A DNA stretch of 37,634 nucleotides, from NCBI GenBank assembly GCA_016199665.1, contig JACQGG010000020.1:1-37634 (forward strand), given 5' to 3'. A program made the translations under genes and the position numbers. Positions 1-30,607 of the stretch are shown here, piece after piece; the stretch's first letter is position 1; the number at the start of each line of letters is the position of its first letter. Under the pieces are notes generated by a model that was not told the origin of the DNA, made no database searches, and was given only the letters and a program-made list of their open reading frames with translations. Source of the stretch: Acidobacteriota bacterium (GTDB lineage: Bacteria; Acidobacteriota; UBA6911; JACQSX01).

Positions 1-1599
1 AGCCTGCCCCACCGCCTGATTGTTGGCGGCAGTAATGCCCATATAGTGGTCGTTTTCAATAACGCGAACCTGCGGGTAGTATTCCCTGACAAATTGCACG
101 CTTCCGTCCGATGAAACATTGTCGGAGAAGATGATCTCAAAATCCTGAAAGGCGCCGTGGTAGAGTGAATCAAAGCAGTTGGCCAGATATTCTTTGCCGT
201 CCCAATTCAGAATGATCACACTGACAAGGGGGGCCGCCATAGCCGCCGCCGCTCTGTGCGGCGCCGCATCCTCCGGCCGGACTTTCCCCAAGGCGGTAGT
301 ACCCAGCTCTTCAGCGCCGCCCGACAGCCGTTGCCATTGGGAGTGTCGCAACTGCTCATAGCACACGGCCAGGACCGCCGCTATCAAAAAGACAAACGCG
401 AAGCTGGCTACAATTTCAGCCACCATTACCAGATTGGCCAGCAGGAACAAAGCGCAGACCAGATTGAACGATCCCCAGACGAACAGGCAGAAGGTTGGGA
501 AATCTCTGGTGAGAACACGCACTGCCTGGGGCGCAAAAGTGACCTTGCTGTAAAGAAAATGCTTGGTCAACAGACCGGACTTGGCCGCATAACTGCGCAC
601 CCAGTTCCAGGCTCCAGCCTGCTGCTTAACGCCCAGGACTGTCTCATAGTAAAAATCGGCCAGATCGTTCATCCTATGGAGCATGTCCCTGGTGGCCGCA
701 GCTTGCGCCTGAAGCATGGATGCTTCCTGTTCCAGGTTTTCAACAACAAACTCTTCTCCCAGCTTCTTTTTCAGTTGCAGCAGTTCCAAATCGCTGTCCA
801 ATTTGCGCAGGGACGTCTGGACCTTCAGTTTGTCTATCGCCAGCGCCTGCATTTCTTTGATAAACAACGTCTTCAAAGCGACAACTTGATCCGCTATTTC
901 GCTTCCCTCTTTCTCAATAGACCTTCTCAGCGCGCGCAGTGGATCGATTTCCCGGGGTGTCGCCTCCACAATCTCTCGGTCTACCTTCGAAAGTTTTGAT
1001 TGCATCGCAGCGTTGGCGGTGCCCAGCTCAACAATGCGGCCGGCCAAAGCCTGCAGGCGGGTGACTGCCTCCTCCATCTCTTCCAGCAGAGAAACTTTCA
1101 CCTTAGGCTGAGGAGGCGCTAGGGCCGGCGCTTTTTTCTCCGCGACCTGGCGGATCCGCGGCAACAGCCTCAACGCCAGCCATAGAGGCAGGCGATACAG
1201 CGGGACAACGGCCAGCAACAGCAGGGCCAAGACGGTGAAGATGGATCTGGGAAATTCTTCGGGTCCGCCCCGGGTCAAAGTCATGAACTGCACCATGAAC
1301 GTCATCTGCAGCAGAACCCCGGCAAGCAGCCCCAGGATCAGCACGCCGATGCGGCGCAACTGTAGCTGATAAAGTCCGAAGATCTGAAAAGCCAGCAGAA
1401 GACTGACTACGATCAGCCACTCGTCATGGTCGACGTCGCCGTAAAGCTTTGCCAGGGGAGTGGCAAAGAAAAACCAGCCGGGTTCTCGCAGCGTCCAGGC
1501 ATAGCTATACAATCTACGAACCACGAAGGCATCAACAGCCACCAGTAGCGGCGTCTGTACCCAGAGAGCCGTCTTTACCAGAGAATCTGAGAATTTCAT
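1..1599 (-). CDS. Membrane/coiled-coil protein fused to a C-terminal GT2 glycosyltransferase domain (3'-truncated by window edge; absent from ORF track)
   Basis: My translation of the minus frame from ATG 1599 (ATGA overlap with the upstream stop at 1596-1598) is open to position 1 (533 codons). It starts MKFSDSLVKTALWVQTPLLVAVD, has hydrophobic segments and a charged helical stretch, and from 240 reads MAAPLVSVIILNWDGKEYLANCFDSL...FEIIFSDNVSSDGS...NNQAV, a typical GT2 N-terminus. Confidence 0.88.
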   Translation of the reverse strand, partial: MKFSDSLVKTALWVQTPLLVAVDAFVVRRLYSYAWTLREPGWFFFATPLAKLYGDVDHDEWLIVVSLLLAFQIFGLYQLQLRRIGVLILGLLAGVLLQMTFMVQFMTLTRGGPEEFPRSIFTVLALLLLAVVPLYRLPLWLALRLLPRIRQVAEKKAPALAPPQPKVKVSLLEEMEEAVTRLQALAGRIVELGTANAAMQSKLSKVDREIVEATPREIDPLRALRRSIEKEGSEIADQVVALKTLFIKEMQALAIDKLKVQTSLRKLDSDLELLQLKKKLGEEFVVENLEQEASMLQAQAAATRDMLHRMNDLADFYYETVLGVKQQAGAWNWVRSYAAKSGLLTKHFLYSKVTFAPQAVRVLTRDFPTFCLFVWGSFNLVCALFLLANLVMVAEIVASFAFVFLIAAVLAVCYEQLRHSQWQRLSGGAEELGTTALGKVRPEDAAPHRAAAAMAAPLVSVIILNWDGKEYLANCFDSLYHGAFQDFEIIFSDNVSSDGSVQFVREYYPQVRVIENDHYMGITAANNQAVGQA

Positions 1600-4500
1600 C
1601 CTCTAATCCCGCGCCAAAAATGGTCTCGGCCGATCCGCCACAGCGTCGCGCAGAGAGTCACGAGACTAACCAAAACGCCCACCTCAAGGAGCACTTGAGG
1701 GCCATACTCCGCGACAATCCGATATTGGCCCGGGCGCCGGATATACCAGCCATTGTCATGAAGATTTGCCCTGAAATGTTCCTTGAGAAGGGTCCGGTGG
1801 TTCCGCTCAAAAAACCAGCTCAGGAGCGCCGAAAACTCAAACCAGTGCGAGCGGGAAGCGCGCCGCTCGTCCAGGATATAGGCCTTCCATCCAGGGTGGA
1901 ACTCCTGCCAGAGAAGCAGCCAAAAAGGCCCCTCGCTCCTTACGTCAAAGGTGTAGCGCGTCAGACGAGAGGAGCGATGAACCTCGGCGAAACTGCGGTT
2001 TATGACGGGTCTGGTAATACCCTTGCGCATCTCCACAAGCGCCACTTCAAACGTGGCATCCAACTTTACGTTGAGACCTCCGGGGATGTAGCCTGCAGAC
2101 TCCGCATGGAGGGACGTGGGTTTGGACCACAGGAATTCACTATTCAAACCATTTGCATAGTCCTGCGACTCGGGCTGGAACTGAAACAGTTCTTTGCCCA
2201 GAGTGAAAAGGGGTCGGTCGATTGCATGAGATAACAGACGGGGCCAGTTCTCAAATCTGCCGGAGAAGGGCACTTTGGAGTAAAGCCCCACTTCCTCTAT
2301 CTCAAAAGAATATTCCTGTGGACCTCGAGTCGGCTGGAAAGCCCGGGATCGAGCCAATCGCAGACGTAAGGTCACAGGTCTGGCCTGTGGGCTCCTGGGA
2401 TAGAACTCAGCCCGGAGGTCTGGCCAGTTCAGCTCCAACGTGTTCCCTCTTCCCCCAAAAATATTCGAGTGGGGGAGAGGCAGATACTCCACCGAGTAAA
2501 CCTCCTGGGGAGCAGTTCCTGAAGGCACGGTTATCTGCAGCAGGCGCCGGGGCACATCCTCCTTCGGAGGCTGATCCGCAGGCTGAAGCGGGAAACCCCT
2601 CCAGCCAATCACCTTCACGGCCTCCTCATCGGGGGGCCAGCCGTTCCAGGTTGTGGCCAGAGGCACGCCGTTTTTTTTGACGACAAAGTAGTCCATACCC
2701 CACGAAGTCTCCGCCTGATTGCTTGTGTCGTACACATTCGGGAAGTCCTGCGGAAGCCGGGTTTGGAACACCTGGTACGGCCCCACGGTGTCCGCATACT
2801 TCCATTCCTTCAGCGCCTCGCGCTTGCCGGGAAACAGAGTTTCGTCTCCCTTGCCATCGCCGTCTACATCAATCACCAGTTCCGGCATCAGCGTTTGAGC
2901 CGCACGGTCATCGAGCCGGTAGGTCACCATCAGAGAGGAGGCCTGTGCGAAGTTCGCCCCCCTCAGGTCGACGGACGCAACCAACGCGTCTGGAGCAAAC
3001 TCCGTCTGGCTCTCAGGTTCGAGATCCACTCGAAGTGAGATTCCGTCCCTTCGTAACGCAACAGTCGCTCCATCGAGCTCTTTAACTCTCGCTACGGTTA
3101 TCGTCTGCTCGTCTTCTTTGACTGCAGTCCCCGTAACTTGGGTGATGCGGGAATGCACCTTAGGCTCCTTCAACGTCTCCTGAAGCTCCGTTGGGACTTC
3201 ACTTTCCGCAGTTGTTTCCAACTGCGCGGCGGTTTCCGATACTTTCGGGTAATCCACCTGAACCCTGCTCAGCTCGGCCTTGAGAATGAACGTAGCCGTG
3301 GACCCAAGCCGCGATGTCGCTATCACTCTATCAGTCCGGTTCTCATAGGTGCCGGATACAACCCAGGTGTTTTCGTCAGTCACAAGACTTCGATGGCGAA
3401 GAGCCGATCCATCGGGTCGTTGTACCGGCTGCAAGGTCCAGCTCTCCCAGCGGGACAAGGACACTTTGTCTTCCCTGACCAGTAATGACAGGTCGTTGTA
3501 GATAGACAATTCCCGGATCTCGAAAGTGAAAGGCGCCTCCTTGCTGAGAGCGGCCGTTCCTTTACCCGGCTTTTTCCTGGCAACCAGAAACAATCTCACC
3601 AGGCGAGGCTTGGCAAGCCGGTAGAATGCATCCGCAACCGGCGTATTCCGGACAACGTCGGGTTCAGGAATACCGGCCAGTTCCATGGTACTGAGCTTGG
3701 CGGTGACTTCCAGCTCATTTGGCCGATCTTTGACTCGGCTGGCGGTCGCTGGAATCCACTCGCTGACTTCCTCACTGCCATTATGACTGATCCCAAAAAC
3801 CACATCCATCGCCTGAACTGACGGGTCCGTAACAAACAATCGCAGCTTGAAATACGGGTAATCATCCAGGTCAATGCCGGGAGTCGGACGGCCTGTCGCT
3901 GCTCCGGGCGAAGCGAGATCCGACAGGTCCCTTTCGAGAATCTCATACTCCATTTCAGGGGAATCCTTATCGAAGAACATTCTCACCTGCATGCCATCCG
4001 CTGTCCCTGCTAACGCCGTCACCACGGTCGCCTCCGGTGGGATTCCAGTATCTGCCCGTTCTTTTTCCTTAAAATCCAGACCCTCCCAGATTTGAATACT
4101 GGCCGCCCGGTCATCTGCGTTGTCCAGAAGTTCGGTGAGTCTCTCCACTTTCTGCGGGGTGTAGAGCAATAATTCATTGGCCCCCGGTTTCAACGTGACA
4201 TCCTTCAACTCAATCAAATCGCCGCCGACAGGAAATGGAGTCTGGTACCGCGCCCACGACTTTCCGAAAACCCAGGAGCTCACCAGTCGCTGGAAAGAAA
4301 AAGGGGCCTCAAGGTACCGGGAGCGCAGCCTGAAGTTGCGCGTCTGGTCTCTATTCAGGGACACCCGCAGATCGCGATCCCCGACACTGGATACGTAGAA
4401 ACTCAGATCCCCTTTAACAGAAAAACGGCGCGGGTTGACTAGCAGCATCCTCATGTTGTTGGATCCCCAGCGCCAGCGGTGGTGATGGTCTGTTTCCAAT

Positions 4501-7500
4501 TCGTAAATGTTCTCTCGATCGAGCACAAAGGGTTTGGCTGATCTCTCCGCTGAGCCCTCGCTCCGGGTGATAAGGGGATTGAACCAGCGCGTCGCTTCCA
4601 CTTCCCAGTTGCGTTCCCCGGAAAGTGCAAAAACCGGACTCGAGTGCAAGCGAGGTCTGATCAGCGCACGCATCTGATAATCCCCTGGGGCGGGAACCAA
4701 AACATCGTTTCGATTTTGCGTTATTCCATGCTCATACTTACCGCGAACATCCGTCGGAGCATATCCCGTGGATTGGTAGCGCTCGACGTCCCGGCGTTCC
4801 TGGGTTTGAATTAAATTTCGATAAGGCTCTTCATTTGTTGCCACAATCCGGTTCAAGAGAGAATTTACCTCTGCCTTGGGCGCAACTAAAACTGCGGAAA
4901 CATGGCGGTTCATGTTGCGAGAAAGGAAGAAAAGCCGGGCATTCGCCAGCGAGTCACGATCTGCCATGGACGCAGACCGAAATCCAACAATGACACTCCG
5001 CCGTTTCTCATAACCAATTTCGTAGAGAGTCTGGTCGCCCTTCCGAAGTTCTGCATCCGGGCCGATTTTCTCGCTGGTGCTCAAAGCAGACCAGTCCCCG
5101 TAAGTTGAGGCAATTTGCCGGTCACCCAGAAACAAAAGGGTTGTGGCATTCCCGCCACGGGTGTTGTAGTCCGGGAAGTCTTTGGGCAGGTTTGCCTCGA
5201 ACAGTTTTATCGATACATCCGGAATGTACCTGGGACGCCAGCTTTTCAGATTCGCCAATTGGAAAACCTTGATCTCGTGGCGCCCTCTGTCAAGATTGGC
5301 CTCGCCGTGAAACTGCCACACTCGGGAAAGCTGGACCAGTTGACCGGTGGGGCTGGTTTGGTCCGCAGGCGCCAGCAGTTGATCGTCAACGGTGAGCAGG
5401 ATTTCCGCAGGCCTCTGGTCTGGCACCCTTTGGGAAAGCACGTAGCGTGTTTGGGATTCGGATGCAGAGTTGAAGGCGAGACCGGAACCGTTGCCGGCAG
5501 CCAGGCGATACGGGGAGTCTATCAAGTTCAGAACAAAATCGGCCACGTCCTTGCCCAGAAGCAGCCTGCTCTGGGTGGCACTGAGCAGTGACTCAAGCCT
5601 TTCGAACGGAGCCGTGCCCTGGCTCTTGCCCTGACCGTTGGCAGATACAAAGATTTGCCGGGGATCCCATGCGTTCTTAAACATTGCGGGCAGTGAATCC
5701 AGCTTGGAAGTCTCGTCCTGAAAGTCGCGATACGGAACATTGGTTAGCACGGCGCTCTCTTTGGCGGCGCTCTCCAATGAACTGTCCGGGCGAAGCTCAT
5801 AGAAGGCAAAATAGGGAGTCTCCCGGATCAGCGTGAAGAAGCGGACATCGGCTAAAATCGCGCGTAAGGCCCAATAATCCCTCGGCGGATTCGGAGACAC
5901 GGGAGGAAATACTATGGAAGCATTTTGATAGTCCTTGTGCACCAGCAGGTAGCGAAAGCGCGAAGTCTTCAGGAGTTGATAAGCCATCTCGGGGTCGCCC
6001 CCAACTCCTGAGCTTAGAACCTGCGGTGTGATTCCCAGGCGTCGCCTTCCCGTCAGGGAGTAGCTGATCGGGCCTTTTGCGGGCTCTTCACTGTAACCCG
6101 TCACCAGACCCAGGCTTGGAATCGACCTCAACAGGCCAGGGATGTCGGGAAACGTAAAATACGGCCACCAGCCATAAACCGCAGGACCCATCTCCCACCA
6201 GGGTAGATTGAGGAGACGGTCTCCCTCCCTGTGATTCTTCAAAATGTAAGTGTGAACCCACTGATACGGTTCGGGAATCTTGACGGTCGGTGTGTGGAAC
6301 GGAGCCATATGCCTCTTCCACGGTCCATAGGTTGGGCGGACACTGATCAACTGAGGCCATCCGTTAACAAGAGTAATATGCGACACGATGAGAGCGACTA
6401 TCAGGACTCCCAAGTACGGCCGGAACCTGGTGTGGAGGTGTGAGTTCCAGAAATGCTGGAGTATGTTCTGGACAGTTGCTCCCGCAAGCACCGCGTAAAG
6501 AATGCCCATTATGAAAAGCCAATAGTTGGGTGACTGAATGATGTTAAATCCCGGAACGTAGGTAAACATCAGAACATATAATTTATCAAGTACCGGGTAA
6601 TGGGACGCCGCCGCCAGAACGGTCAGCAGGAGGGAAACCAGAGCAAAGGGCAAAGTTCTCCGTCGGGGCTTCCAGAGCAGACAGGCATAAACATACAGCG
6701 GACACAACAAACTTAGAGGCGCCCACGGAACCTGCATCATTATGCCTGATGCGATGTTGTCCGGATTGCCCGTGATCAGCCGCGAAATCCAGAGTACCCC
6801 GGCCCAAGGCTTGTTGAATTCATACCATTGGATCCTTTGAGTGAAAACACCCTCCGTTACGAACAAATCACCGATTGCGTTGCCCGTGTAGAACCAAACG
6901 ATCGGTAAGATCCAAAAAAAGTTCAACAGGATCATCATGGTGGCAGCGACAGACAAGAACTTGAGCGTCAACCAACCGCGGAGTTCGGGTTCGAATAATA
7001 GTCGAATCAGGATGTAAGCGCCGACGGCAACTCCGGTTATGATGGTGAAGCGAGGGCTCGGTGCGCTCATGAGAAACCCTAACGCGACGAGCAGAGCAGG
7101 CTTTAACGCACCTTTGCCGGGGTTTTCCAAACCCCGAATCACCCCGGCCAGAATCAGCGCATCTCCCCCCAGAGCAAGCGAGAAAAGCGATGTGCCCGGA
7201 AATTCGGGCTGCAACATCGCAAACATGGCAGCCACCAGGCTGGAAATTTGCGAAAACCGGCCTCGAAAAACAGTATGTCCCAAATACAAAACTCCCCAGC
7301 CCAAAGCGGCGGTGGGAACCACCAAGTACAGCCTGTTTAAGACCCACAAGGGTACCTTGAGCCAGTAAAGGACACAGACCATCAAGTGCCAGGGCCCAAA
7401 AGACAGCCAAACGTTGGCCTGGCCCCACAAATTATAGGGGGACCAGGTCGACAGGGCTTCTTCAAGGCTCTTGGCCGGGTCCATGGGGGCAACCAAGTCT

Positions 7501-7622
7501 CCCCAGTTGATATAGGTTCCGGGCGTGAAAAAGCCCGGGCAGTGCCACAGCGCCATGGCCAACAGCACAATCACCAGGGCGGGGCCAAAGCGGCCGATCG
7601 AAGGAACGAGGTTTTTACTCAT
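1596..7622 (-). CDS. 2008-aa GT-C-like integral membrane protein (AftD/YfhO-like) with very large extracytoplasmic region
   Basis: About 430 N-terminal residues of stacked hydrophobic helices with an acidic first loop (YINWGDL). Then a RLLNLP...RYLLVHKD segment, a long beta-rich soluble region, and a YfhO-like C-terminus (FWLLLWQEFHPGWKAY...ANLHDNGWYI...EYGPQ..LEVG..VSL plus TM helix). Confidence 0.75.
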   Translation of the reverse strand: MSKNLVPSIGRFGPALVIVLLAMALWHCPGFFTPGTYINWGDLVAPMDPAKSLEEALSTWSPYNLWGQANVWLSFGPWHLMVCVLYWLKVPLWVLNRLYLVVPTAALGWGVLYLGHTVFRGRFSQISSLVAAMFAMLQPEFPGTSLFSLALGGDALILAGVIRGLENPGKGALKPALLVALGFLMSAPSPRFTIITGVAVGAYILIRLLFEPELRGWLTLKFLSVAATMMILLNFFWILPIVWFYTGNAIGDLFVTEGVFTQRIQWYEFNKPWAGVLWISRLITGNPDNIASGIMMQVPWAPLSLLCPLYVYACLLWKPRRRTLPFALVSLLLTVLAAASHYPVLDKLYVLMFTYVPGFNIIQSPNYWLFIMGILYAVLAGATVQNILQHFWNSHLHTRFRPYLGVLIVALIVSHITLVNGWPQLISVRPTYGPWKRHMAPFHTPTVKIPEPYQWVHTYILKNHREGDRLLNLPWWEMGPAVYGWWPYFTFPDIPGLLRSIPSLGLVTGYSEEPAKGPISYSLTGRRRLGITPQVLSSGVGGDPEMAYQLLKTSRFRYLLVHKDYQNASIVFPPVSPNPPRDYWALRAILADVRFFTLIRETPYFAFYELRPDSSLESAAKESAVLTNVPYRDFQDETSKLDSLPAMFKNAWDPRQIFVSANGQGKSQGTAPFERLESLLSATQSRLLLGKDVADFVLNLIDSPYRLAAGNGSGLAFNSASESQTRYVLSQRVPDQRPAEILLTVDDQLLAPADQTSPTGQLVQLSRVWQFHGEANLDRGRHEIKVFQLANLKSWRPRYIPDVSIKLFEANLPKDFPDYNTRGGNATTLLFLGDRQIASTYGDWSALSTSEKIGPDAELRKGDQTLYEIGYEKRRSVIVGFRSASMADRDSLANARLFFLSRNMNRHVSAVLVAPKAEVNSLLNRIVATNEEPYRNLIQTQERRDVERYQSTGYAPTDVRGKYEHGITQNRNDVLVPAPGDYQMRALIRPRLHSSPVFALSGERNWEVEATRWFNPLITRSEGSAERSAKPFVLDRENIYELETDHHHRWRWGSNNMRMLLVNPRRFSVKGDLSFYVSSVGDRDLRVSLNRDQTRNFRLRSRYLEAPFSFQRLVSSWVFGKSWARYQTPFPVGGDLIELKDVTLKPGANELLLYTPQKVERLTELLDNADDRAASIQIWEGLDFKEKERADTGIPPEATVVTALAGTADGMQVRMFFDKDSPEMEYEILERDLSDLASPGAATGRPTPGIDLDDYPYFKLRLFVTDPSVQAMDVVFGISHNGSEEVSEWIPATASRVKDRPNELEVTAKLSTMELAGIPEPDVVRNTPVADAFYRLAKPRLVRLFLVARKKPGKGTAALSKEAPFTFEIRELSIYNDLSLLVREDKVSLSRWESWTLQPVQRPDGSALRHRSLVTDENTWVVSGTYENRTDRVIATSRLGSTATFILKAELSRVQVDYPKVSETAAQLETTAESEVPTELQETLKEPKVHSRITQVTGTAVKEDEQTITVARVKELDGATVALRRDGISLRVDLEPESQTEFAPDALVASVDLRGANFAQASSLMVTYRLDDRAAQTLMPELVIDVDGDGKGDETLFPGKREALKEWKYADTVGPYQVFQTRLPQDFPNVYDTSNQAETSWGMDYFVVKKNGVPLATTWNGWPPDEEAVKVIGWRGFPLQPADQPPKEDVPRRLLQITVPSGTAPQEVYSVEYLPLPHSNIFGGRGNTLELNWPDLRAEFYPRSPQARPVTLRLRLARSRAFQPTRGPQEYSFEIEEVGLYSKVPFSGRFENWPRLLSHAIDRPLFTLGKELFQFQPESQDYANGLNSEFLWSKPTSLHAESAGYIPGGLNVKLDATFEVALVEMRKGITRPVINRSFAEVHRSSRLTRYTFDVRSEGPFWLLLWQEFHPGWKAYILDERRASRSHWFEFSALLSWFFERNHRTLLKEHFRANLHDNGWYIRRPGQYRIVAEYGPQVLLEVGVLVSLVTLCATLWRIGRDHFWRGIRG

Positions 7623-7678
7623 GATCTATCTGATGGTAACACTGAAAGCCCAGCCTGCCGGCTCTTAGCGGGAGTACC

Positions 7679-10455: not shown

Positions 10456-10519
10456 GGTCAGTCTCCTTCAGTTGCCAACGGAGGCGCCCGGCTGGAGTCC
10501 GAAATTCCTAATTTCCAAC

Positions 10520-11017: not shown

Positions 11018-11077
11018 GGATCATCGGGAGTTAATGATCGTAGGACAAGGCCGCATTGCCCGTGTGCCAGCGGTGGC

Positions 11078-17852: not shown

Positions 17853-17859
17853 AGTTCTC

Positions 17860-20082: not shown

Positions 20083-20741
20083 TACACGCAAACCCTCGGA
20101 AGAATGGAGACCAGTTCCGCCAGATCTCGGATAATGAAGTCCGGGGAGACGCCGGCCAGGGGGTCGCGACTTCGGATGCCGTTCAACACAGCCACCGAAG
20201 CCAACCCCAGGGCCCTGGCGGCCAGGACATCCACTTCGGTGTCTCCCACCAGCAGAAGGGCATCGCGCAGACGCTGCGGCGCCGTTTCAATGAGCCGCCG
20301 CTTCAAAATCCACCCTTCGGCAGACTGCGTGTCACCGGAACAGAGGATTTCGTCAAATGCGCCGCGCACTCCCAAACGTTCGAGTTCCCAAAGCAGGTTG
20401 TCACACTGCTGCCTCAAGGTAGCCGCCGCAAGCTGAAACCCTTCGCCGCGAAGATGCTGCAGCGCCGGAGCCGCGCCCTGCTGTATCTGATCAAGATACA
20501 GGAACCGCCGATCTTCTATGCTTTCGAGCCACCGGACGCGGTAGCGCGACAGGACGCTCGGGTCGGCAAGACCGGGCTCTATTTGATCGAGCGCCTGCCG
20601 TTTTCGCTTGCCTTCCCAGTAGACGGCATAGGGCGCCGGGGTGACATCGATATCCTTGAGGATTTCGCTATGAACCGCGTAATAGCGCCGTGATACGTCG
20701 ATGACCGGACCATCCAAGTCCAGAAAAATAGTTTTGCCCAT
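20082..20741 (-). CDS. HAD-superfamily hydrolase/phosphatase
   Basis: Motif I FLDLDGP, motif II ATLR, motif IV VGDTEVD. Start ATG 20741 or 20759. Confidence 0.9.
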   Translation of the reverse strand: MGKTIFLDLDGPVIDVSRRYYAVHSEILKDIDVTPAPYAVYWEGKRKRQALDQIEPGLADPSVLSRYRVRWLESIEDRRFLYLDQIQQGAAPALQHLRGEGFQLAAATLRQQCDNLLWELERLGVRGAFDEILCSGDTQSAEGWILKRRLIETAPQRLRDALLLVGDTEVDVLAARALGLASVAVLNGIRSRDPLAGVSPDFIIRDLAELVSILPRVCV

Positions 20742-20774
20742 CGGGCTCCCCGCCCGCATCCTGACAAATGCGAG

Positions 20775-22758: not shown

Positions 22759-23806
22759 GTGAAGCCGCCGGAGACTCAACAGGTTCAGCCGCACTGCCAT
22801 TTTGAATCGATCTTTCGATTGCCTTGAGAATTCGTATGATTCCGACGGCGTGCCTTCCATCCGTCAACGGGGTTTGGCCCAAGGCAACGCACTTCAGAAA
22901 GTGCGCACACAGGTTTTTCAGCGGCTCGCTGGCTTCAATCTTGGGAGACCTGATGGCGCCGTCTCTCATGAGAAGCTTGAATTCTCCAAAGCTGTCCACT
23001 TCCGCCTGCACCGGAACCACACCCTTTTCAAAGATGCGTATCGGCTCGAGTGAATCGAGGTCGTCAAATACGATCCGCTGATTGCTCCCAACCACGGTGA
23101 CACGCCGGACCTTGTTGGGGTCCGCCCAGCTTACGTGAATGTTGCAGAGCACGTTGTTGGGGTAGTGCAGGGTGATGAAAGCTACATCTTCACGCGCATT
23201 TCCCAGAAATCGGGCGCCGACGGCGCTGACGCTCACCGGTTCATCCCCCAGTACAAAATTCGCAATTGAGATGTCATGGGTGGCCAGGTCCCACACCGCG
23301 TTGACGTCCTTGCGAATCGGACCCAGGTTGGTGCGAGTGGCGTGGATATAGTAGGCTTTGCCGAATTCGGCGCTCTCCACATAGTGTTTCAACGCTGTCA
23401 CGCCGGCGTTGAACAGGAAGGTGTGGCCGACCATCAGGACGCATTTCCGCGCCTGGGCGAGCGCTACCAGCGCCTCCGCCTCACCCACTTCCAGCGTGAT
23501 TGGCTTTTCAACCAGCAGATGTTTCCCAGCCTCGAGAACCTGACAAGCCACCGCATAGTGCGTCGCGGCGGGAGTGGCGACCACCACGGCATCCGCTTCG
23601 GCCAGCAACGCACCCATTTCCCGGTAAGCTCTGATCGCGGGAAATCGTTCCAGAGCCATGGCCACGCGGGGGGCGTCCGGCTCCAACAGTCCGATCAACT
23701 GCGATTCGCGGATTTCACTGAAGACCCTCAGATAGTTCATCCCCCAGTGGCCGCACCCGATGACGCCGATCTTTAGCTTCTGGCTAGAATCCACCCGTTT
23801 CTCCAC
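22748..23806 (-). CDS. Gfo/Idh/MocA family oxidoreductase (sugar 3-dehydrogenase-like)
   Basis: IGCGHWG, VATPAATH, LVEKP, VGHTF, WDLATHD. GTG 23794 with GGAG upstream is the more likely start. Confidence 0.93.
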   Translation of the reverse strand: MEKRVDSSQKLKIGVIGCGHWGMNYLRVFSEIRESQLIGLLEPDAPRVAMALERFPAIRAYREMGALLAEADAVVVATPAATHYAVACQVLEAGKHLLVEKPITLEVGEAEALVALAQARKCVLMVGHTFLFNAGVTALKHYVESAEFGKAYYIHATRTNLGPIRKDVNAVWDLATHDISIANFVLGDEPVSVSAVGARFLGNAREDVAFITLHYPNNVLCNIHVSWADPNKVRRVTVVGSNQRIVFDDLDSLEPIRIFEKGVVPVQAEVDSFGEFKLLMRDGAIRSPKIEASEPLKNLCAHFLKCVALGQTPLTDGRHAVGIIRILKAIERSIQNGSAAEPVESPAASHAR

Positions 23807-23895: not shown

Positions 23896-25386
23896 TTAAT
23901 GCGGGGTAGCGGCAGAGCTGAGCTTAAGGTTGTCGAGCGCAAAATCCTTCAGGTGACCTACAACTTTCCATGCTGCCCGCCCCAGGAACTTGATGTCATC
24001 CAGGCTTCGCACCGATATCACCTTGCGCGCGATGTATTGCGGACTCATAAATGACTTGTACAACTGCTGGGATAGCTGCAGAACATCTTCGGTGGTCAGT
24101 TGGCTTACCATCACTTGTTCGCGCATGTCGTAGCGATCCCAGTCCTCATGCAGCAGCCAGCCGTTCTCTCTGCACTGCTTGAACAACTGCGTTCCCGGAT
24201 AAGGGATCGTGATGGTGGCCTGAAGGGTATCGATCCATCCGCGCTGGAACAGATCCTTGCATAAATCGATGGTCTGCTGGGCCTGCGCCTTGGTTTCCCA
24301 TGGATAGCCGACCATGCAGGTAACGTGGGGTTCCAGGCCCGCTCTTTTCGCCATGCGCATTGCGTCGCGGATATCCTGAACCGTGTTTCCCTTGTTGAGC
24401 CTTTCCAGCGTCCGGTCATTGCCCGACTCCACCCCGTAAAGAATGAAGCGGAAACCGGCCCGTCCCATCAAATTGTACTGCTCCTGATTTAACGCTCCCG
24501 GCTTCATATTGCAGCCGAATTTGAGCTTCTTGTTGTACCCGCGCGCGATCATCGCTTCGCAGAATTTCTGCAGAAACGCTCCACCCGGGAAAGTGCCGGT
24601 ATCGTCAAAGATTTCCTTGACACCGTACTTGTGGATCAGTACTTCCACTTCTTCCAAAAGCTGGTCGGCAGTCATGACCTGAAACTTGGGAAAGATCGTC
24701 GTCCAGGAGCAGAAAGTGCAGCCGCCATCCTTGCGCCACCAGCAGTCCCGGCCCGCCATGGTGTAGGTTCCCGGCAAGTACTTGTAATTCCCGTTATGAT
24801 ACGCGTAGAGCCGCCACTTAGTGAGGTCACGGTCCAGCATTGGGATTTCGTGGAGACTCCCTTTTTGTTCGAAATGCCCGGTTGACTTAAAGCCGTTGCC
24901 GTCGCGATAGAAGACCCCGGCCGCGAGCGCCTCGCCTCCGGAAATGTTTCCGGCAAGATTCAGCAGCGAAAGATCATAGTTGCCGCCTGTTATCACATAG
25001 TCCACCCCGGAGTTTTCCATCGACTCCTCAGGAAAACCGGTGACGTGATCCCCCATCAGCACCGTAATGATGTCCGGGCGCAGCTCTTTGATGCGGTTGA
25101 TGATGCGCCAGTGTGTGCGGATGACGGGCGTCTTGGATTCAATCGCAATCAAATCGACATCCGAGTGTTGCAGCTCCTCCAGCCAGGGGCGCAGCCTCTT
25201 TTTTTCCGCGATCGCGTCGTCCCACACCACTTCGTATCCGCTCCGCTTCAGGAGAGTGGCCGCATAGGCGGGCACCATGGGATAGATGTAGGTGGGAGCA
25301 TTAAAGTACTGAAACTGCCGATTTTGAGCCAGAAGCGGAGTCCCCTTGGGAGAATCAATTGGCGGATAGGAAATCGCAATTTTCAT
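23896..25386 (-). CDS. Cobalamin-binding-domain radical SAM protein with non-canonical CX7CX2C motif
   Basis: N-terminal YPMVPAYAA/GDHVT region, GRDCWWRKDGGCTFC (24709-24744), GVESGN, VGYPWET, PYPGT. Confidence 0.87.
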   Translation of the reverse strand: MKIAISYPPIDSPKGTPLLAQNRQFQYFNAPTYIYPMVPAYAATLLKRSGYEVVWDDAIAEKKRLRPWLEELQHSDVDLIAIESKTPVIRTHWRIINRIKELRPDIITVLMGDHVTGFPEESMENSGVDYVITGGNYDLSLLNLAGNISGGEALAAGVFYRDGNGFKSTGHFEQKGSLHEIPMLDRDLTKWRLYAYHNGNYKYLPGTYTMAGRDCWWRKDGGCTFCSWTTIFPKFQVMTADQLLEEVEVLIHKYGVKEIFDDTGTFPGGAFLQKFCEAMIARGYNKKLKFGCNMKPGALNQEQYNLMGRAGFRFILYGVESGNDRTLERLNKGNTVQDIRDAMRMAKRAGLEPHVTCMVGYPWETKAQAQQTIDLCKDLFQRGWIDTLQATITIPYPGTQLFKQCRENGWLLHEDWDRYDMREQVMVSQLTTEDVLQLSQQLYKSFMSPQYIARKVISVRSLDDIKFLGRAAWKVVGHLKDFALDNLKLSSAATPH

Positions 25387-25522: not shown

Positions 25523-26521
25523 TCATCGAACCAGCCTTCGAGTAAGCAAACCCTTTATGAAATAGAGCCCGTAGCAAAAGTGCGTCGTGAAGATCCCTGC
25601 CCCACTCAGCAGCCCAAGCGCGAGGCTCCTGGTTCGGGCGGAAACAGCCGCCACTGAGACGATCAGCAGCGCTCCATAAGCCGTCACCAGCATCAGTGGA
25701 AGTCTGAGCAGCGGGCTGCTGCTGAAAACTGCAGGCAACGCCGCCAGCAGGGTGATGGTGAAAGCCGAAGGGAGGAAGTAGCTGGCTCGGAGTGACGTAT
25801 CAGGGTAAACCTTGGCAAAAAATCCCCGGTGCAGGGCATAATTGGTTATCTGCCTGAGGTGAGGCAGGAAGAGCTCCCGGCGGTGGTGCCATACGAAAAC
25901 ATTCGGATCATAAATGATCTTTAGCCCCAGTTCCTTGGTCACCGCCAGGCAGAGCTTGGTGTCTTCCCCCGGCCAAAAAGTTGAATCAAACCCCCCCGCC
26001 TTTTCAAATACGTCCCTGCGAATGAGGAAGTTGACCGAAGGGTAGTCGTCCACCTCGCGTTTTCGCTGGGGCACATAACGATATGCAAACACCCCTCCTC
26101 CAAGCCAGGTGGAAAAGACTTCGCCCGAGGCCTTCTGCCAGAGGTTGTCATCGACAGGGGTGACGGCCGGCCCTCCGACAGCCCCTACGCCGGGGTCCTC
26201 AAAGTGAAGCAAGGCATGATCGAGCCAGTCAGCCGTCGGATAAGCGTCGTCGTCGAGAAACGCCAGAACCTGAGCATCGGAAAACCGGAGAGCCATATCC
26301 CTCTTTTCGGCGGGACCGACGGCGCCAGTGGGCAAGATCTTGACCCGGCCGCCGCCAGGGAAGAACTCGCCTGTTTCGGCAGCGTCCGGCAGAATCAGAA
26401 CTTCAAAATTGCCGTAGTTGAGGTTCAAAATGTGAGGGACAGACTCCCTCACGTAGGCGTTGATCTTTCTAACGGGAATAATGATCGCGACTTGCGGCGA
26501 TCGCAGCGGATCGAGTTGCAT
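25523..26521 (-). CDS. GT2 glycosyltransferase with C-terminal membrane segments
   Basis: IIIPVR, AFLDDDAYP, VGGP, GGFD..GED and a hydrophobic C-terminus. Confidence 0.92.
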   Translation of the reverse strand: MQLDPLRSPQVAIIIPVRKINAYVRESVPHILNLNYGNFEVLILPDAAETGEFFPGGGRVKILPTGAVGPAEKRDMALRFSDAQVLAFLDDDAYPTADWLDHALLHFEDPGVGAVGGPAVTPVDDNLWQKASGEVFSTWLGGGVFAYRYVPQRKREVDDYPSVNFLIRRDVFEKAGGFDSTFWPGEDTKLCLAVTKELGLKIIYDPNVFVWHHRRELFLPHLRQITNYALHRGFFAKVYPDTSLRASYFLPSAFTITLLAALPAVFSSSPLLRLPLMLVTAYGALLIVSVAAVSARTRSLALGLLSGAGIFTTHFCYGLYFIKGLLTRRLVR

Positions 26522-27767
26522 GGACTATTCTCACCAGCAGCAAGACACAGGCCATGAGGCCCGTAACCGTCATGTAGAAAAGGACATCGGGAATGTTCCG
26601 ACTCCAGAAGTAGAGGCTCCCAACCTGAAACAAGGAGACGAATGCAAGAACCTTGTAGGTATCCTGGATGTCACGGGCCAGGCAATAATTTACCGATAAG
26701 GTCATGATGGCAAAACAGACCATAGCCAGTCCGTAAGGTCCGAGGAAGGCGGCTCCCCCCTGGTATTGGCCCCCCAGAAACAGACGCAGCAAAGGCTCCG
26801 GAAAAGCATAAAAAAAGATAACGCCGGCCAGCGAGATGCCGGCTGTCAGCACGGTCGAGAAAACAAACAAGCGGAAGGACTCGGCGCGCTCTGCGCCCGA
26901 AACCTTGGGGAGCAACACCTGCGCCACGGCCGCCGGCAGGTACAGAATGGTTCGTCCCAGAACACACACGCCGGCGTAGATCCCGGCCTGCTCGGGATTG
27001 AACCGGTGTTTGACCAGCACCATGTCGATGAAAGTGATCAGAGTGAGAAAGAAGAGCGTTGCCGATGTGGACGAGAACTGCAGGCTCTCGGGCTTCTCCC
27101 CGTTCTCGTCCGGGTAGGGCCGGAGAAGGCTGCGGATCAACAGGAAAGAGAGGATAAATACCGCCGCCGTGGCGAGGATCGCCGCCGAGAGCGCTCCCAC
27201 CAGCGCCGCACCCGCCCAAACCAGGAGGACCGCCGCCACGAGCCGAATTCCGCCCAGAATCGTCCCGAGTCCTGCATACACGGCAAAGCGCTGAAGACCC
27301 TGATAAAAGCCGATGTTGAGCGCCGCCAGAAGGGACCAGAACACCAGAACGGCAAACAACATGAGCGGCCAGAACTGCTCCAGGTTCAGGAACCGCTGCA
27401 GCGGAGAAAACATCAGGACCACCGTGGCGGCGGCGGCTCCGGAAAAGAACGCCGTCTTTTTCAGCACCGAGTAATAGAGGGCCCGAATCTGCCCCCAGGA
27501 CTCTCGACGCGCCATGCGAGCAATGTGTTTGGCCTTGACCAGCGTGATGGTGGCGGCCGGAACCGAAATGATGATCGTCAACGACAGAATGGCATTCAGC
27601 GCGCCGAAATCGGCCAGCGTTAAAAGCCTCCCCATGGCAAACTGGTAAAGGTAGTTGGCCACATTCCCCAACATTCCGACAACCAGGACCACGGCGCTGG
27701 AACGAAGCAGATCCCGCCGCTCGGTGTTCAGCAGCGTGCGTCCCCACCTCAGTACCAGCGAGGTCAT
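26469..27767 (-). CDS. Oligosaccharide flippase (Wzx/MOP family)
   Basis: About 12 hydrophobic helices; NYLYQFAMGRLL..ADFG, GFYQGLQRF, IDMVLVKH, AGIYA, LLPKVS. Confidence 0.87.
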   Translation of the reverse strand: MTSLVLRWGRTLLNTERRDLLRSSAVVLVVGMLGNVANYLYQFAMGRLLTLADFGALNAILSLTIIISVPAATITLVKAKHIARMARRESWGQIRALYYSVLKKTAFFSGAAAATVVLMFSPLQRFLNLEQFWPLMLFAVLVFWSLLAALNIGFYQGLQRFAVYAGLGTILGGIRLVAAVLLVWAGAALVGALSAAILATAAVFILSFLLIRSLLRPYPDENGEKPESLQFSSTSATLFFLTLITFIDMVLVKHRFNPEQAGIYAGVCVLGRTILYLPAAVAQVLLPKVSGAERAESFRLFVFSTVLTAGISLAGVIFFYAFPEPLLRLFLGGQYQGGAAFLGPYGLAMVCFAIMTLSVNYCLARDIQDTYKVLAFVSLFQVGSLYFWSRNIPDVLFYMTVTGLMACVLLLVRIVHATRSAAIAASRDHYSR

Positions 27768-27768
27768 A

Positions 27769-29511
27769 TTAATGTTTCAATTCCACGGCGACAGGCTTGA
27801 TCCCGGAACGCTGGTTCAGAAGCAGCGCCATCCAGCATCCGACTCCGTAGGCGATGTGCGTCGACACAATCCCACTCCCGATTGCCAGGATCATTCCAGG
27901 TCGGAGACTTGAGAAGGATTCCAAAGCCACCAGCACCAGGTAAACTGCGATCGCCGCCAGGAAAACTTTTGCAAAAAGAGGACTGAGCAACGCCATGGGA
28001 AGACCCACTGCCAGAAAAAGCACCAGCAGCGCAGGCAGAACAAAGACCGTCTCCGGCCACCGGAACAGCGAAGCTGGATTCAACCTTATATACTGGCCGC
28101 GAGTGTGACCCCAGGTGAAAATCGTCGAGAAGTAGGGGACAAACAGAGGCGCAAACCTGCGGTGCACAACCACCTCCGGATCATAGACAACGCGTTTGCG
28201 CCCTTTCTGGATGTAATGACCCAGCCACGTCTCTACACCGGTATCGAGGCGATTTCGCCTCAACGCCGAGACCAGGTCTTCTTTTTTCATGATCAGGTTC
28301 TCAAGGGTAATCGTATTGACGTAGCGATGGAGAGACTGCATATAGCGATATCTAAATCCGCCGCAACCCATTAATGAACTCAAGACCTCCCGCACCGCCT
28401 CGCTCCAGAAATCGCCCGCCTGCGGCAGGATCGGCCCGGACACGGCGACGATGTCAGCCGAACCCAGGTTCCTGGAGGCTTTCTCAAGCCAGAATCTGTC
28501 GGGTACTGCTCCCGGCCTCACGAATGCCAGCGCCTCTGTGGGCAGTCCTTCGATGATTTCCAGAAGGGACGCCCGTCGCGCGTCCAGTGGTACATAGAGG
28601 ATCCGGTCCGACTCCAAACGCGGGGGATCGGTTCCACAGGCGATCACGGTGAAACTACCGAATTGGATATCCAGACACCCGCGCAGCGTTTCTTCGACTT
28701 CCGGAGAGTACCGGTCGTATGGAACGATCACCGATACGGTCGGGTACGAACCCTCTCTGAGGAACTTCAGGTCATAGTATTTCAAAATATGCATCCGATA
28801 AAAAATCGCCAGGGTATCGAGCAGCGTGCTCCAGAGCGTGTCATAAGTAACGCGTCCCCATCGAACCGTTCTCCTGAACTCCAGCTCGATCGGCGCCTCG
28901 ATGATCTTGTAGTTCAGCCGGTGGATGTTGGCCAGCAACTCAACGTCCAGTGCGAAGCGCTTGCAGAGAATCTTGTAAAAAACCTCTTCCAGCACCCGGC
29001 GCCGGAACACTTTCAGCCCTACCTGCGTGTCCCGGAGCGGAAGGCCGAACAAAAGCCAGAGGATAAAATGGTAGGTCTTGCTGATAAGTCTCCGGCGCAG
29101 CGGGTAGGAAACGCGAGACTCGGGGTGGCGCTTGGACCCGATGACCACATCAGCGTCCTGCTCCTGCATGAGCTGAAAGAACTTTCCCAGCACGCGCGGG
29201 TGCAGGTCAAGATCCGCGTCCAGGAATACAACGTAGTCTCCATCAGCGGCCTGGAAGGCGCAACGGAGCGCAAATCCCTTGCCCTCGTTCTGCCGGTAGT
29301 GAAGGACCCGGATGTGCGGGTCCCGCTCGGCCACCGCCTTTAGCTTTGCCAGAGTTCCGTCCTGGCTGCCATCGTCGACGCAGATCACTTCATAGCTTTC
29401 GGAAAACTCGGCGAAAAAGGCGCTGATCTCGCGCAAGTTCTCCCGGATGGATCCTGCCTCGTTGAAACAGGGAATCAGGACACTGATCTTTCCTTGAATC
29501 GGGGCAAGCAT
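27769..29511 (-). CDS. Two-domain GT2: polyprenol-phosphate sugar synthase-like N-domain plus degenerate GT2 C-domain with TM tail
   Basis: N-domain IPCFNE, VDDGSQDGT, NEGKG, FLDADLD, IGSKR, DTQVGLK, FALDVELL (DPM/DPG-synthase-like). The C-domain aligns by eye with 25523..26521 but lacks DXD. Confidence 0.87.
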   Translation of the reverse strand: MLAPIQGKISVLIPCFNEAGSIRENLREISAFFAEFSESYEVICVDDGSQDGTLAKLKAVAERDPHIRVLHYRQNEGKGFALRCAFQAADGDYVVFLDADLDLHPRVLGKFFQLMQEQDADVVIGSKRHPESRVSYPLRRRLISKTYHFILWLLFGLPLRDTQVGLKVFRRRVLEEVFYKILCKRFALDVELLANIHRLNYKIIEAPIELEFRRTVRWGRVTYDTLWSTLLDTLAIFYRMHILKYYDLKFLREGSYPTVSVIVPYDRYSPEVEETLRGCLDIQFGSFTVIACGTDPPRLESDRILYVPLDARRASLLEIIEGLPTEALAFVRPGAVPDRFWLEKASRNLGSADIVAVSGPILPQAGDFWSEAVREVLSSLMGCGGFRYRYMQSLHRYVNTITLENLIMKKEDLVSALRRNRLDTGVETWLGHYIQKGRKRVVYDPEVVVHRRFAPLFVPYFSTIFTWGHTRGQYIRLNPASLFRWPETVFVLPALLVLFLAVGLPMALLSPLFAKVFLAAIAVYLVLVALESFSSLRPGMILAIGSGIVSTHIAYGVGCWMALLLNQRSGIKPVAVELKH

Positions 29512-29557: not shown

Positions 29558-30607
29558 TCAATCCGAATTCTCACTCCAGGATCGATCGGAATAGTACTCG
29601 ATGACCCGCCGGATCATGTCGTCCAGCTGCACCCGGGGTTCCCACTCGATGTAAGCGCGGATCTTGGAAATGTCGGGAACCCGGCGCGGCATGTCCTCGA
29701 AACCTTCGCCGTAGACCTGGTCATAGGGCAGGCGCTGGATCTCTGAATCGCTGCCGGACGCGAGCTTGACTCGACGCGCCAGATCCTCGATGCTCACTTC
29801 GACGCCGTTTCCGACATTAAAAATCTGTCCCACGGCCCGCTCGCAGGATGCCAGTTGCACCAGGGCGTTCACCACATCCCCGACGTAGCTGAATGACCGC
29901 GTCTGCCTGCCGTCGCCATAAACGGTAATCGGTTTTCCAGCCAACGCCTGCTTTACAAAGTTAGGGAGGACCATCCCATAGCGACCCGTCTGACGCGGCC
30001 CCACGGTATTGAAGAGGCGCACGACCACCACAGGCAGCCGTTTCTCCTTCCAGTACGCGATCGTCAGAAACTCGTCCAGGGCCTTGGAACAGGCATAGGC
30101 CCATCGGCCTTTCACCGTGGGGCCGAGCACCAGATCATCATCCTCCGAAAAAGGCACCTTGGTGGCTTTGCCGTACACTTCAGACGTGGATGCCAGCAGC
30201 ACTTTCTTTTTCTTCTTGTGGGCCAGCTCCAGAACCACCTCGGTGCCGCGCACATTGGTTTCGATGGTCCGAACCGGACTTTCCACGATCAGCCGCACCC
30301 CGACTGCCGCCGCCAGGTGGTAAATCACGTCGCACTGATCCACCAGTTCCGCCAGAATCGGGACGTTCAGGACGGAATCAATTGTATAGTCGAACCGCGG
30401 AGTTCCGCCCGCGGTCGATGGATCGCCGCCACGGCCGGTGCCCACGGTCCCGCCGGAGCGGGGATACCGGGCTTTCAAGTGCTGCACATTCTCGATGGAA
30501 CCGGTGGACAGGTCATCGATGATGGCCACGCCGTGCCCCTGGCTCAGCAGAGCTTCGGCCAGATGACTGCCGATGAAACCGGCGCCGCCGGTGATGAGAA
30601 CCCGCAT
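29558..30607 (-). CDS. NAD-dependent epimerase/dehydratase (UDP-glucuronate decarboxylase-like extended SDR); first gene of the cluster
   Basis: TGGAGFIGSH, HLAAAVGV, STSEVYG, YACSK, RLFNTVGPRQ, GDGRQTRSF. Confidence 0.92.
   Translation of the reverse strand: MRVLITGGAGFIGSHLAEALLSQGHGVAIIDDLSTGSIENVQHLKARYPRSGGTVGTGRGGDPSTAGGTPRFDYTIDSVLNVPILAELVDQCDVIYHLAAAVGVRLIVESPVRTIETNVRGTEVVLELAHKKKKKVLLASTSEVYGKATKVPFSEDDDLVLGPTVKGRWAYACSKALDEFLTIAYWKEKRLPVVVVRLFNTVGPRQTGRYGMVLPNFVKQALAGKPITVYGDGRQTRSFSYVGDVVNALVQLASCERAVGQIFNVGNGVEVSIEDLARRVKLASGSDSEIQRLPYDQVYGEGFEDMPRRVPDISKIRAYIEWEPRVQLDDMIRRVIEYYSDRSWSENSD

Follow-up and report, generated by a model that had tools for sequence, protein, structure and literature searches.

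The window analyzed here is the whole stretch of 37,634 nucleotides (nt) that makes up one contig of an Acidobacteriota bacterium (GenBank assembly GCA_016199665.1, contig JACQGG010000020.1; C237 among the 259 contigs of a 2.54-Mb genome that is 77.7% complete), and its minus strand carries a long row of glycosylation genes running from position 30607 to position 1. The largest of these encodes a 2008-amino-acid (aa) membrane protein that appears distantly related to AftD, a mycobacterial arabinofuranosyltransferase and thus a glycosyltransferase (GT), of the GT-C fold. Open reading frame (ORF) calls place 21 minus-strand ORFs head to tail, with inter-ORF gaps of -113 to +253 nt and overlaps at 7 of the 20 junctions, bearing out a first-pass annotation of this DNA that had described about 21 codirectional, often translationally coupled genes. 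Its list of contents (GT2, flippase, GT-C, further GT2 and GT4 enzymes, rare-sugar enzymes, an ATP-grasp protein, and two B12 radical SAM proteins) was likewise recovered when families were called by Pfam and NCBIfam on the 28 window ORFs, with Pfam hits taken at an E value of ≤1e-3. The identity of each part rests on homology or fold, and on balance we favor the view that the locus is an accessory operon for polyprenyl-phosphate-based, GT-C-dependent glycosylation outside the cytoplasm. All locus genes below are given by minus-strand coordinates.

The giant protein (1596..7622) has about 10 hydrophobic segments in residues 1 to 430, about 1,450 hydrophilic residues, and a last hydrophobic segment near residue 1977. 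Its domains are a GT-C part (residues 1 to ~615), a periplasmic part of about 1,270 aa, and a conserved C-terminal module with a final transmembrane helix (residues ~1888 to 2000). A word-based search of 5.8 billion proteins found only the protein itself, and a single-sequence search of the PDB gave nothing meaningful. A HMMER search with residues 1 to 1200 against 1.84 billion representatives found 120 relatives at an E value of ≤1e-3 and 33 at ≤1e-30, nearly all of which align through residues ~10 to 610. Of 32 relatives scanned, 5 pass the cutoff of PF11847 (26 bits), and in 17 the GT-C part is followed by a lectin-like Laminin_G_3 domain. When 19 short family members were combined into a profile, it hit the AftD structures 6W98 and 6WBX with an E value of 1.2e-6; a second profile, made from the giant and six full-length relatives, aligned with AftD residues 33 to 545 at an E value of 1.2e-14. 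By these profiles the giant is a distant AftD homolog, not a member of PF11847 by the curated threshold.

The predicted structure points the same way. An AlphaFold model of residues 1 to 620 built on a 63-sequence alignment reached a predicted local distance difference test score (pLDDT) of 87.7 and a predicted template modeling score of 0.91, whereas a single-sequence model of residues 1 to 650 (pLDDT, 40.4) was unusable. With Foldseek, the best match of the former model was AftD (6w98; E value of 2e-9, TM score of 0.59, root mean square deviation [rmsd] of 6.1 over 659 columns), and ranks 1 to 35 were all GT-C enzymes. Among 48,161 chains compared with VIA-align, the 13 best rows were also all GT-C enzymes (Z scores of 11.7 to 20.1), led by the archaeal AglB at 20.1, with AftD at 19.1 (rmsd of 4.1 over 475 residues, ~15% identity). 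No Wzy or WaaL chain is among the fold matches listed by the two programs, which is an absence from those lists only. Residues 1 to 620 are thus assigned to the GT-C fold both by profile and by predicted structure.

Several residues are strongly kept in the family. Asp42, in an N-x-G-D motif of the first loop just after helix 1, is kept in 19/19 and 62/63 aligned relatives in two alignments, and within the 63 aligned sequences W60 is kept in 63, R281 in 58, W485 in 62, and D564 in 60, with an acidic residue at position 493 in 52. In the HMMER alignment, the columns of W60, G67, P450, R469-x-L-x-x-P474, and D564 face identical AftD residues. The essential residues of AftD include K39, D41, E251, K361, and D474 in the numbering of the paper, according to the part of the preprint drawn on here (bioRxiv 10.1101/2019.12.22.885152), and Asp42 of the giant is likely equivalent to D41; the alignment gave no confident position for the other four.

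The structural comparison also touches on protein glycosylation, in which a lipid-linked oligosaccharide would be built on a monophosphate carrier, as in archaeal Agl pathways, and the giant would transfer it to envelope or S-layer proteins in the manner of an oligosaccharyltransferase (OST), with the PMT_2-type enzyme described below adding a final sugar. The top VIA-align row is AglB, OST complexes occupy Foldseek ranks 2 to 5, and residues 447 to 612 of the model match the C-terminal globular domains of AglB and PglB (Z scores of 8.0 and 6.0); a conserved Y-x-W-W motif lies ~60 residues past the last helix of the membrane domain, and weak NCBIfam matches to the AglM, AglJ, and AglG models occur in the locus. 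The Z ranking among GT-C enzymes (19 to 20) is not discriminating, because all of them share the GT-C fold. OSTs are marked by a WWDYG motif and by a DxD motif in the first loop, and the family alignment holds neither WWDYG nor the second acidic residue of DxD. Homology at the sequence level extends to AftD only, and the lectin-like domains carried by relatives of the giant make a glycan the most likely acceptor. We consider transfer to protein highly improbable.

For the periplasmic ~1,270 aa of the giant, no relative was found in Pfam and no solved relative by a profile of seven giant proteins; geminin rows for this part (E values of 0.08 to 0.4) were dismissed as coiled-coil noise. This part is common to four other giants (P0037, P0048, P0086, and P0093; 1748 to 1904 aa) at ~25% identity over 861 to 1432 residues, and the last ~110 residues with the final helix are common to most family members of any length. 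In a related Omnitrophica locus (L006), a separate 744-aa gene at 12067-14301, just downstream of the GT-C gene, matches giant residues 1031 to 1299 and 1736 to 1994, so that the acidobacterial giant looks like a gene fusion.

The proposed donor of such an enzyme would come from two adjacent genes near the start of the row. The gene at 27769..29511 encodes a 580-aa GT2 with a polyprenyl-phosphate sugar synthase-like N-terminal domain (Glycos_transf_2, 121.8 bits), an extra middle region, and C-terminal hydrophobic helices. In a PDB sequence search, polyprenyl-phosphate glycosyltransferases took all seven top places (ArnC with an E value of 1.2e-16, archaeal DPMS, and GtrB). A DAD motif occurs at residue 98 and again at 119, and the C terminus is visibly hydrophobic in the sequence; the protein fits the GtrB/ArnC/DPMS type in combining a GT-A domain that holds a DxD motif with membrane helices after the catalytic domain. 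We regard it as a candidate lipid-phosphate sugar synthase; it is not an ArnC equivalog (NF007986, 67.7 bits versus a cutoff of 529). The next gene (26469..27767) begins 1 nt past its stop codon and encodes a predicted flippase of the Wzx type (MOP superfamily), which passes the cutoff of Polysacc_synt (PF01943, 38.6 bits versus 28.2) and is polytopic on a crude hydrophobicity scale, with ~8 hydrophobic segments.

A second predicted GT-C lies in the middle of the row (15885..17900; 671 aa as called, with a likely start at Met47). It matches PMT_2 (36.2 bits; cutoff, 26.1) and PMT (27.3 bits; cutoff, 22.7), and it has at least 7 hydrophobic segments and a C-terminal soluble domain. An acidic D-E pair in the first loop is typical of PMT-type GT-Cs, and the protein has HPDE at residue 91, in the first loop after its first hydrophobic segment. 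No NCBIfam model matched it at an E value of ≤1e-5, and a single-sequence PDB search returned nothing meaningful. The first-pass annotation had called two GT-C-like membrane proteins in the locus, with Wzy or O-antigen ligase, rather than PMT or AftD, as the identity that would speak against its proposal. The PMT_2 protein clears its cutoffs, the giant is a GT-C by profile and predicted fold, and neither these two nor the cut last gene matches the Wzy/O-antigen ligase profile (PF04932) at an E value of ≤10.

An ArnC-like GT2 beside a PMT_2 protein could alternatively belong to an Arn-like modification of lipid A or core, in which an amino-pentose derived from UDP-glucuronate would be loaded by the GT2 and added by the PMT_2-type enzyme, the rest of the row being unrelated glycan synthesis. 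ArnT is itself a GT-C of the PMT_2 kind, ArnC structures head the PDB matches of the GT2, and the window also encodes a UDP-glucose dehydrogenase, an SDR resembling UXS and the ArnA C-terminal domain, and an ArnB-like DegT enzyme. All Arn scores fall far short of the equivalog cutoffs (67.7/529 bits for ArnC, 240/631 for ArnB, and 124/777 for ArnA), the PMT_2 protein matches no Arn or other NCBIfam model at an E value of ≤1e-5, and no match to the formyltransferase (ArnA N-terminal) or deformylase (ArnD) families was found among the window ORFs with Pfam. An Arn-like system would account for at most 5 of the 21 genes, and we hold it to be very unlikely.

The sugar-tailoring section is large. 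It comprises in total a UDP-glucose dehydrogenase, five enzymes of the short-chain dehydrogenase/reductase (SDR) family, two DegT-family enzymes, one GFO/IDH/MocA oxidoreductase, and a HAD hydrolase. The row opens with an SDR of the UDP-xylose synthase or ArnA C-terminal (UDP-glucuronate decarboxylase) type (29558..30607; Epimerase and GDP_Man_Dehyd; NF008872 at 157 bits and ArnA at 124 bits, both below the equivalog cutoffs). A GFO/IDH/MocA oxidoreductase resembling UDP-GlcNAc 3-dehydrogenase (22748..23806; NF040723, 178 bits, below cutoff) is followed by an ATP-grasp ligase (21772..22860), the true start of which is probably later, because the ORF as called runs 113 nt into the gene before it. 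Next come an SDR epimerase/dehydratase (20775..21809), a HAD-family hydrolase that is a candidate sugar-phosphate phosphatase (20082..20759), a 338-aa GT2 (19075..20091), and a DegT-family sugar aminotransferase of the PseC/ArnB-like kind (17860..18966; 240 bits to ArnB). Beyond the PMT_2 gene lie a DegT-family enzyme similar to RfbH, a 3-dehydrase (14426..15742; NF011936, 348.8 bits versus a cutoff of 423), a further SDR epimerase/dehydratase (13460..14389), a GDP-L-fucose synthase-like SDR (12466..13467; NF047922, 248 bits versus 500), and a nucleotide-sugar 6-dehydrogenase of the UDP-glucose dehydrogenase type, which does pass its cutoff (11078..12430; TIGR03026, 291 bits versus 189.8). The GT4 glycosyltransferase gene (7679..9034) stands directly before the giant.

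Two B12-binding radical SAM proteins complete the set, and each passes the Pfam cutoffs for both the B12-binding and the radical SAM domain, so that both are predicted to bind cobalamin. The 472-aa protein (9037..10455) has a canonical CxxxCxxC motif (C204, C208, and C211), and its PDB matches are 9ccb and AprD4 (E value of 7e-18). The 496-aa protein (23896..25386) does not have this motif; its sole nearby cysteine triad is C215-x7-C223-x2-C226 (Cx7Cx2C), and its best NCBIfam match is HpnJ (145 bits versus a cutoff of 577.6). The nearest solved relatives of the pair are 9ccb (an unnamed protein), the sugar diol-dehydratase AprD4, and the methyltransferase TokK. In hopanoid side-chain synthesis, the GT2 HpnI is paired with HpnJ, a B12 radical SAM enzyme that contracts a ring, and the locus resembles this module in that a membrane-associated 332-aa GT2 (25523..26521; Glyco_trans_2_3 type with two C-terminal hydrophobic segments, an MftF-like match of 112.7 bits that is below cutoff, and a weak AglG-like match) is directly followed by the 496-aa protein. 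Unlike that module, the locus presents a nucleotide-sugar and glycan context with no hopanoid genes in the window, and the 496-aa protein is not an HpnJ equivalog. A search of one literature library returned no paper linking radical SAM enzymes with GT-C, polyprenyl, and flippase.

The last gene of the row (1..1599), which follows the giant with an ATGA overlap at 1596-1599, is broken off by the contig end, and the operon is therefore incomplete, its remainder lying out of sight. The at least 533 aa that are present consist of hydrophobic segments, a coiled-coil-like stretch of ~230 aa, more hydrophobic segments, and the start of a GT2 domain from residue ~457 (Glycos_transf_2 at residues 460 to 533). 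The whole ORF scores as coding, and its N-terminal ~450 aa are in frame with the GT2. A word-based search found relatives for the GT2 domain only (4 matches) and none for the N-terminal part, and Pfam gave no Wzz-family match at an E value of ≤10. Possible roles for the N-terminal part are chain-length control and scaffolding.

As the operon is cut, the most serious rival is an ordinary Wzx/Wzy locus for O-antigen or exopolysaccharide, in which a phospho-GT encoded outside the locus would start a repeat unit on undecaprenyl diphosphate, the GT2 and GT4 enzymes would build it, and Wzx would flip it. Genes for the polymerase and for the regulator of chain length would then lie past the contig end or on other contigs, and the GT-Cs and the GtrB-like GT2 would add side branches only. 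The window does hold a Polysacc_synt flippase and four cytoplasmic-type GTs, and the membrane and coiled-coil N-terminal part of the cut gene could recall a chain-length regulator, in which two membrane anchors enclose a periplasmic coiled coil. Elsewhere in this genome, the same profiles hit Bac_transf (contig C171), Wzy_C (C6 and C37), and Poly_export (C37); these genes could alternatively make the acceptor polymer. In agreement with the first-pass annotation, which had reported no Wzy, Wzz, Wza/Wzc, ABC exporter, or phospho-GT, the 28 window ORFs gave no match at an E value of ≤1e-3 to Wzy_C, Wzz, Poly_export, ABC, or Bac_transf/Glycos_transf_4 in the 30.6 kb of the row, nor were Wzy, Wzz, or phospho-GT profiles matched within 10 kb of the GT-C gene in 10 related loci. 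Two GT-C genes, one of them 6 kb long, stand in mid-operon and do not look like a small add-on, and the flippase gene directly follows that of the lipid-phosphate sugar synthase. We judge a Wzx/Wzy pathway unlikely.

Several observations weigh against GT-C-dependent glycosylation all the same. Polymerase, chain-length, or export genes may sit past the contig end, and when the genome contigs were searched by tblastn with six relatives of the truncated GT2 domain, none was found to begin with the missing part. Wzy proteins often escape profiles, and several neighbor ORFs of the related loci fall into no family. Flippases of the Wzx kind, to which the one encoded here belongs, take part in ordinary Wzx/Wzy pathways as well. 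Even at an E value of ≤10, Pfam gives no match for the giant, PF11847 (GT-C_AftD) included, and in the HMMER alignment the invariant Asp42 column lies 2 positions before the aspartate of the AftD K-L-D motif. Finally, the equivalog-level NCBIfam scores of the sugar enzymes and of ArnC are all below their cutoffs, so that the sugars cannot be named.

In the GT-C-dependent pathway that we favor, cytoplasmic enzymes would first make several modified nucleotide sugars. The UDP-glucose dehydrogenase, the UXS/ArnA-like decarboxylase, and a DegT enzyme could yield a uronate-derived amino sugar, the GFO oxidoreductase with a DegT enzyme a 3-amino sugar, and a deoxy sugar could come from the RfbH-like and Fcl-like enzymes; the ATP-grasp ligase would attach an amide-linked substituent, and the two radical SAM enzymes might carry out C-methylation, deoxygenation, or ring rearrangement. 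The ArnC/DPMS/GtrB-like GT2 would then load a sugar onto undecaprenyl phosphate, which other GT2 and GT4 enzymes may extend at the inner face to a short lipid-linked oligosaccharide, and the adjacent Wzx-type flippase would turn the lipid-linked donor outward. There the AftD-like giant and the PMT_2-type GT-C would transfer it to an envelope acceptor, most likely a glycan. The order of steps, the sugars, the choice between mono- and oligosaccharide donors, the acceptor, the donor of each GT-C, and the role of the radical SAM proteins are all points that we infer.

How GT-C enzymes assemble glycans outside the cytoplasm has been studied in depth in mycobacteria, in enterobacterial serotype conversion, and in Gram-positive wall polymers. 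The first-pass annotation had proposed that sugars are loaded on a carrier, flipped, and transferred outside by a system so far undescribed. All of the parts for this are present by homology, but the scheme itself, a three- or four-component glycosylation that depends on lipid phosphate and GT-C enzymes, is already known, as the portions of two publications consulted make plain (PMC11127046; PMC10821137). The closest precedent, by analogy, is the lactococcal Wps pathway for the polysaccharide pellicle, in which, as set out in the sections of the report cited (PMC10821137), an oligosaccharide linked to undecaprenyl phosphate is built inside by WpsA/WpsB, WpsC, and other cytoplasmic GTs, flipped by WpsG, polymerized by one GT-C (WpsH with WpsI), and attached to rhamnan by another (WpsJ). 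Shared with Wps are a DPMS-like GT2, which in Wps starts the chain on undecaprenyl monophosphate, further GTs of the cytoplasm, a flippase of the Wzx type, and a pair of outside GT-Cs, and the Wps chain needs no phospho-GT. The Wps host is Gram-positive, however, and the window has no sequence relationship to Wps proteins: its GT-Cs are of the PMT_2 and the 2008-aa AftD-like types, its GT2 has its own membrane helices and no WpsB/GacJ partner, and it adds radical SAM, ATP-grasp, and many sugar-tailoring genes, with no rhamnan-type acceptor locus known here. Since Wps, more than the simpler scheme described next, has counterparts of the extra GTs, of the flippase, and of both GT-Cs, the locus may be seen as a Gram-negative variant of the Wps logic with a large sugar-tailoring section.

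A simpler relative is the three-component scheme of lipid-phosphate sugar synthase, flippase, and GT-C, examples of which (PMC11127046; see also PMC8035078) are GtrA/GtrB/Gtr*, ArnC/ArnEF/ArnT, and a Citrobacter youngae system of polyprenyl-phosphoribose synthase, MATE flippase, and GT136. The acidobacterial locus, too, unites genes for synthase, flippase, and GT-C; its flippase and that of the Citrobacter system both fall in the MOP/MATE superfamily, and relatives of the giant GT-C carry carbohydrate-binding-type domains. Unlike these systems, the locus is seven times larger and holds a pair of GT-Cs, four additional GTs, and sugar-tailoring enzymes of its own; it encodes no UbiA-type phosphoribosyltransferase, and its GT-C is neither of the GT136 nor of the Gtr type.

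The comparison with AftD itself (PDB 6W98, 6WBX, and 6WBY) extends beyond the catalytic part, as both proteins show a similar layout of N-terminal GT-C superdomain, very long periplasmic region, and C-terminal membrane anchor, with an acidic first-loop residue. The giant differs in having one C-terminal hydrophobic segment instead of a C-terminal transmembrane bundle, no carbohydrate-binding module or F5/8 domain was detected in it (Pfam, E value of ≤10), and Pfam found no genes for decaprenyl-phospho-arabinose synthesis (UbiA, DprE1/E2) in the window. In the part of the AftD preprint that we cite (bioRxiv 10.1101/2019.12.22.885152), homologs are stated to occur only in Actinobacteria; the family of the giant is present in other phyla, and it would represent a rare AftD sister family in Acidobacteriota, Omnitrophota, Nitrospinota-like, and other uncultured bacteria.

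Within its own phylum, a family profile found the AftD-like family in 5 of 401 genomes, its own included, 3 of which belong to one genus; with the giant as the query, it was not found in 40 relatives. Pattern scans returned family loci in 3 species genomes (Omnitrophica, Nitrospinales, and an uncultured bacterium) and 10 in metagenomes. We kept 10 distinct loci and scanned their 136 neighbor ORFs with Pfam, leaving out the duplicates L012 (= L006) and L017 (= L008) and the fragments of less than 3.5 kb (L015 and L018) and adding L024 from the phylum survey; L025 (genome G080) was dropped from the counts as a YfhO-family protein. The first-pass annotation had suggested examining whether the neighborhood of the giant is conserved, and parts of it do recur. 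B12 radical SAM genes flank the AftD-like GT-C in 6/10 loci (four in L006, one each in L008, L009, and L010, three in L013, and two in L016), L011 has a radical SAM gene with no B12-domain match, and L007, L014, and L024 have none. The 12 B12-binding domains observed in ~181 kb compare with an expectation of 0.08 to 0.2 per 21.7-kb locus, calculated from a background of 3.9 to 9.2 such domains per Mb in four genomes, a rough estimate given that the loci are nonindependent and such genes cluster. GT2 genes are present in 8/10 related loci, and the 136 neighbor ORFs, many of which have no family, gave no match to Wzy, Wzz, ABC, Poly_export, or Bac_transf. An amine-oxidase-like flavoprotein, absent from the window, lies beside the GT-C in 5/10 loci (L006:18931-21531, where it is fused to a B12 radical SAM; L008:3188-4492; L010:13407-14813; L014:2620-3939; L024:10222-11526).

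Several of the related loci hold orthologs of window genes. In L010, the order is kept and the relatives comprise the 496-aa radical SAM protein (47% identity to a gene cut by the contig end), the DegT aminotransferase (55%), the GFO oxidoreductase (44%), an SDR (31%), the HAD hydrolase (32%), the 338-aa GT2 (32%; also 29% to a GT2 of L007), and the GT-C (32%). L009 has counterparts of the PMT_2 protein in its C-terminal domain (35%, in a cut ORF), of the truncated last gene in its GT2 domain (49% over 73 aa), of the GT4 (38%), of the 472-aa radical SAM protein (41%, beside the GT-C, as also in L013), and of the GT-C (30%), and L011 shares a dehydrogenase (39%), the GT4 (39%), and the GT-C (26%). 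This orthology suggests that in the window two recurring blocks have come together around the AftD-like GT-C.

What is new here is the nonactinobacterial AftD-like family, its giant fused form, and its recurrent B12 radical SAM neighbors; the literature library searched held no paper found to describe them. A bolder extension, which we regard as rather doubtful, is that the AftD-like GT-C, a B12 radical SAM protein of the 472-aa type, a GT4, and GT2s form a conserved module across unrelated, mostly uncultured phyla, making unseen radical-SAM-modified sugars on a monophosphate lipid carrier that are polymerized or attached outside as mycobacterial arabinan is; the acidobacterial form, fused with ~1,400 aa of periplasmic domains that other bacteria encode separately, may act as a scaffold or ruler for itself across the periplasm. 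Should the radical SAM enzymes act on the sugars, their products would be new monosaccharides, and the giant would be a tractable example of acceptor recognition by a periplasm-spanning transferase.

The locus is missing from the corresponding site of a close relative. A same-genus genome (G001) keeps the right flank (a DUF885 protein at 69% identity, adenosine deaminase at 70%, GntR at 82%, and a glycine-zipper protein at 58%), and its next 10.5 kb have nothing in common with the 21 locus proteins at an E value of ≤1e-5. At the equivalent site there (L029; contig C46, 8398-18400) stand what look like defense genes, encoding a nucleotidyltransferase/HEPN pair, an EH_Signature protein, and an SNF2-helicase/Mrr-nuclease protein. 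Since the same site carries other genes in G001, the locus is best described as an accessory, variable island; its GC content is 56.4%, versus 58.6% for the genome. As a strain-specific surface-coat island it would bear on phage and predator recognition. The gene at 30893-31735 was rejected as an operon member, as it is conserved together with the flank in the same-genus genome that does not have the locus.

Just upstream of the first gene, a weak sigma-70-like promoter match lies at 30642..30670 on the minus strand (TCGACA-17-CACAAT, 9/12), which is a consensus match only; 5 sigma-70-like sites were found in the region versus 3.8 expected. A terminator scan of the window found no convincing intrinsic terminator in the row from 30607 to 1. 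The largest gap of the operon, at 10456-11077, contains a GC-rich hairpin at 10585-10598 and a doubtful 102-aa ORF (10709..11017) with sub-threshold zinc-ribbon matches only and an in-frame codon score of 0.135, below those of the neighboring genes; the gap could be an internal transcript boundary. AbiEii-type toxin genes were seen at the edge of two of the related glycan loci (L008:20064-20825 and L011:18771-19484), and elsewhere in the genome of the window (G000), contig C60 (9.7 kb) carries five tandem GT2 paralogs at 3341-8157.

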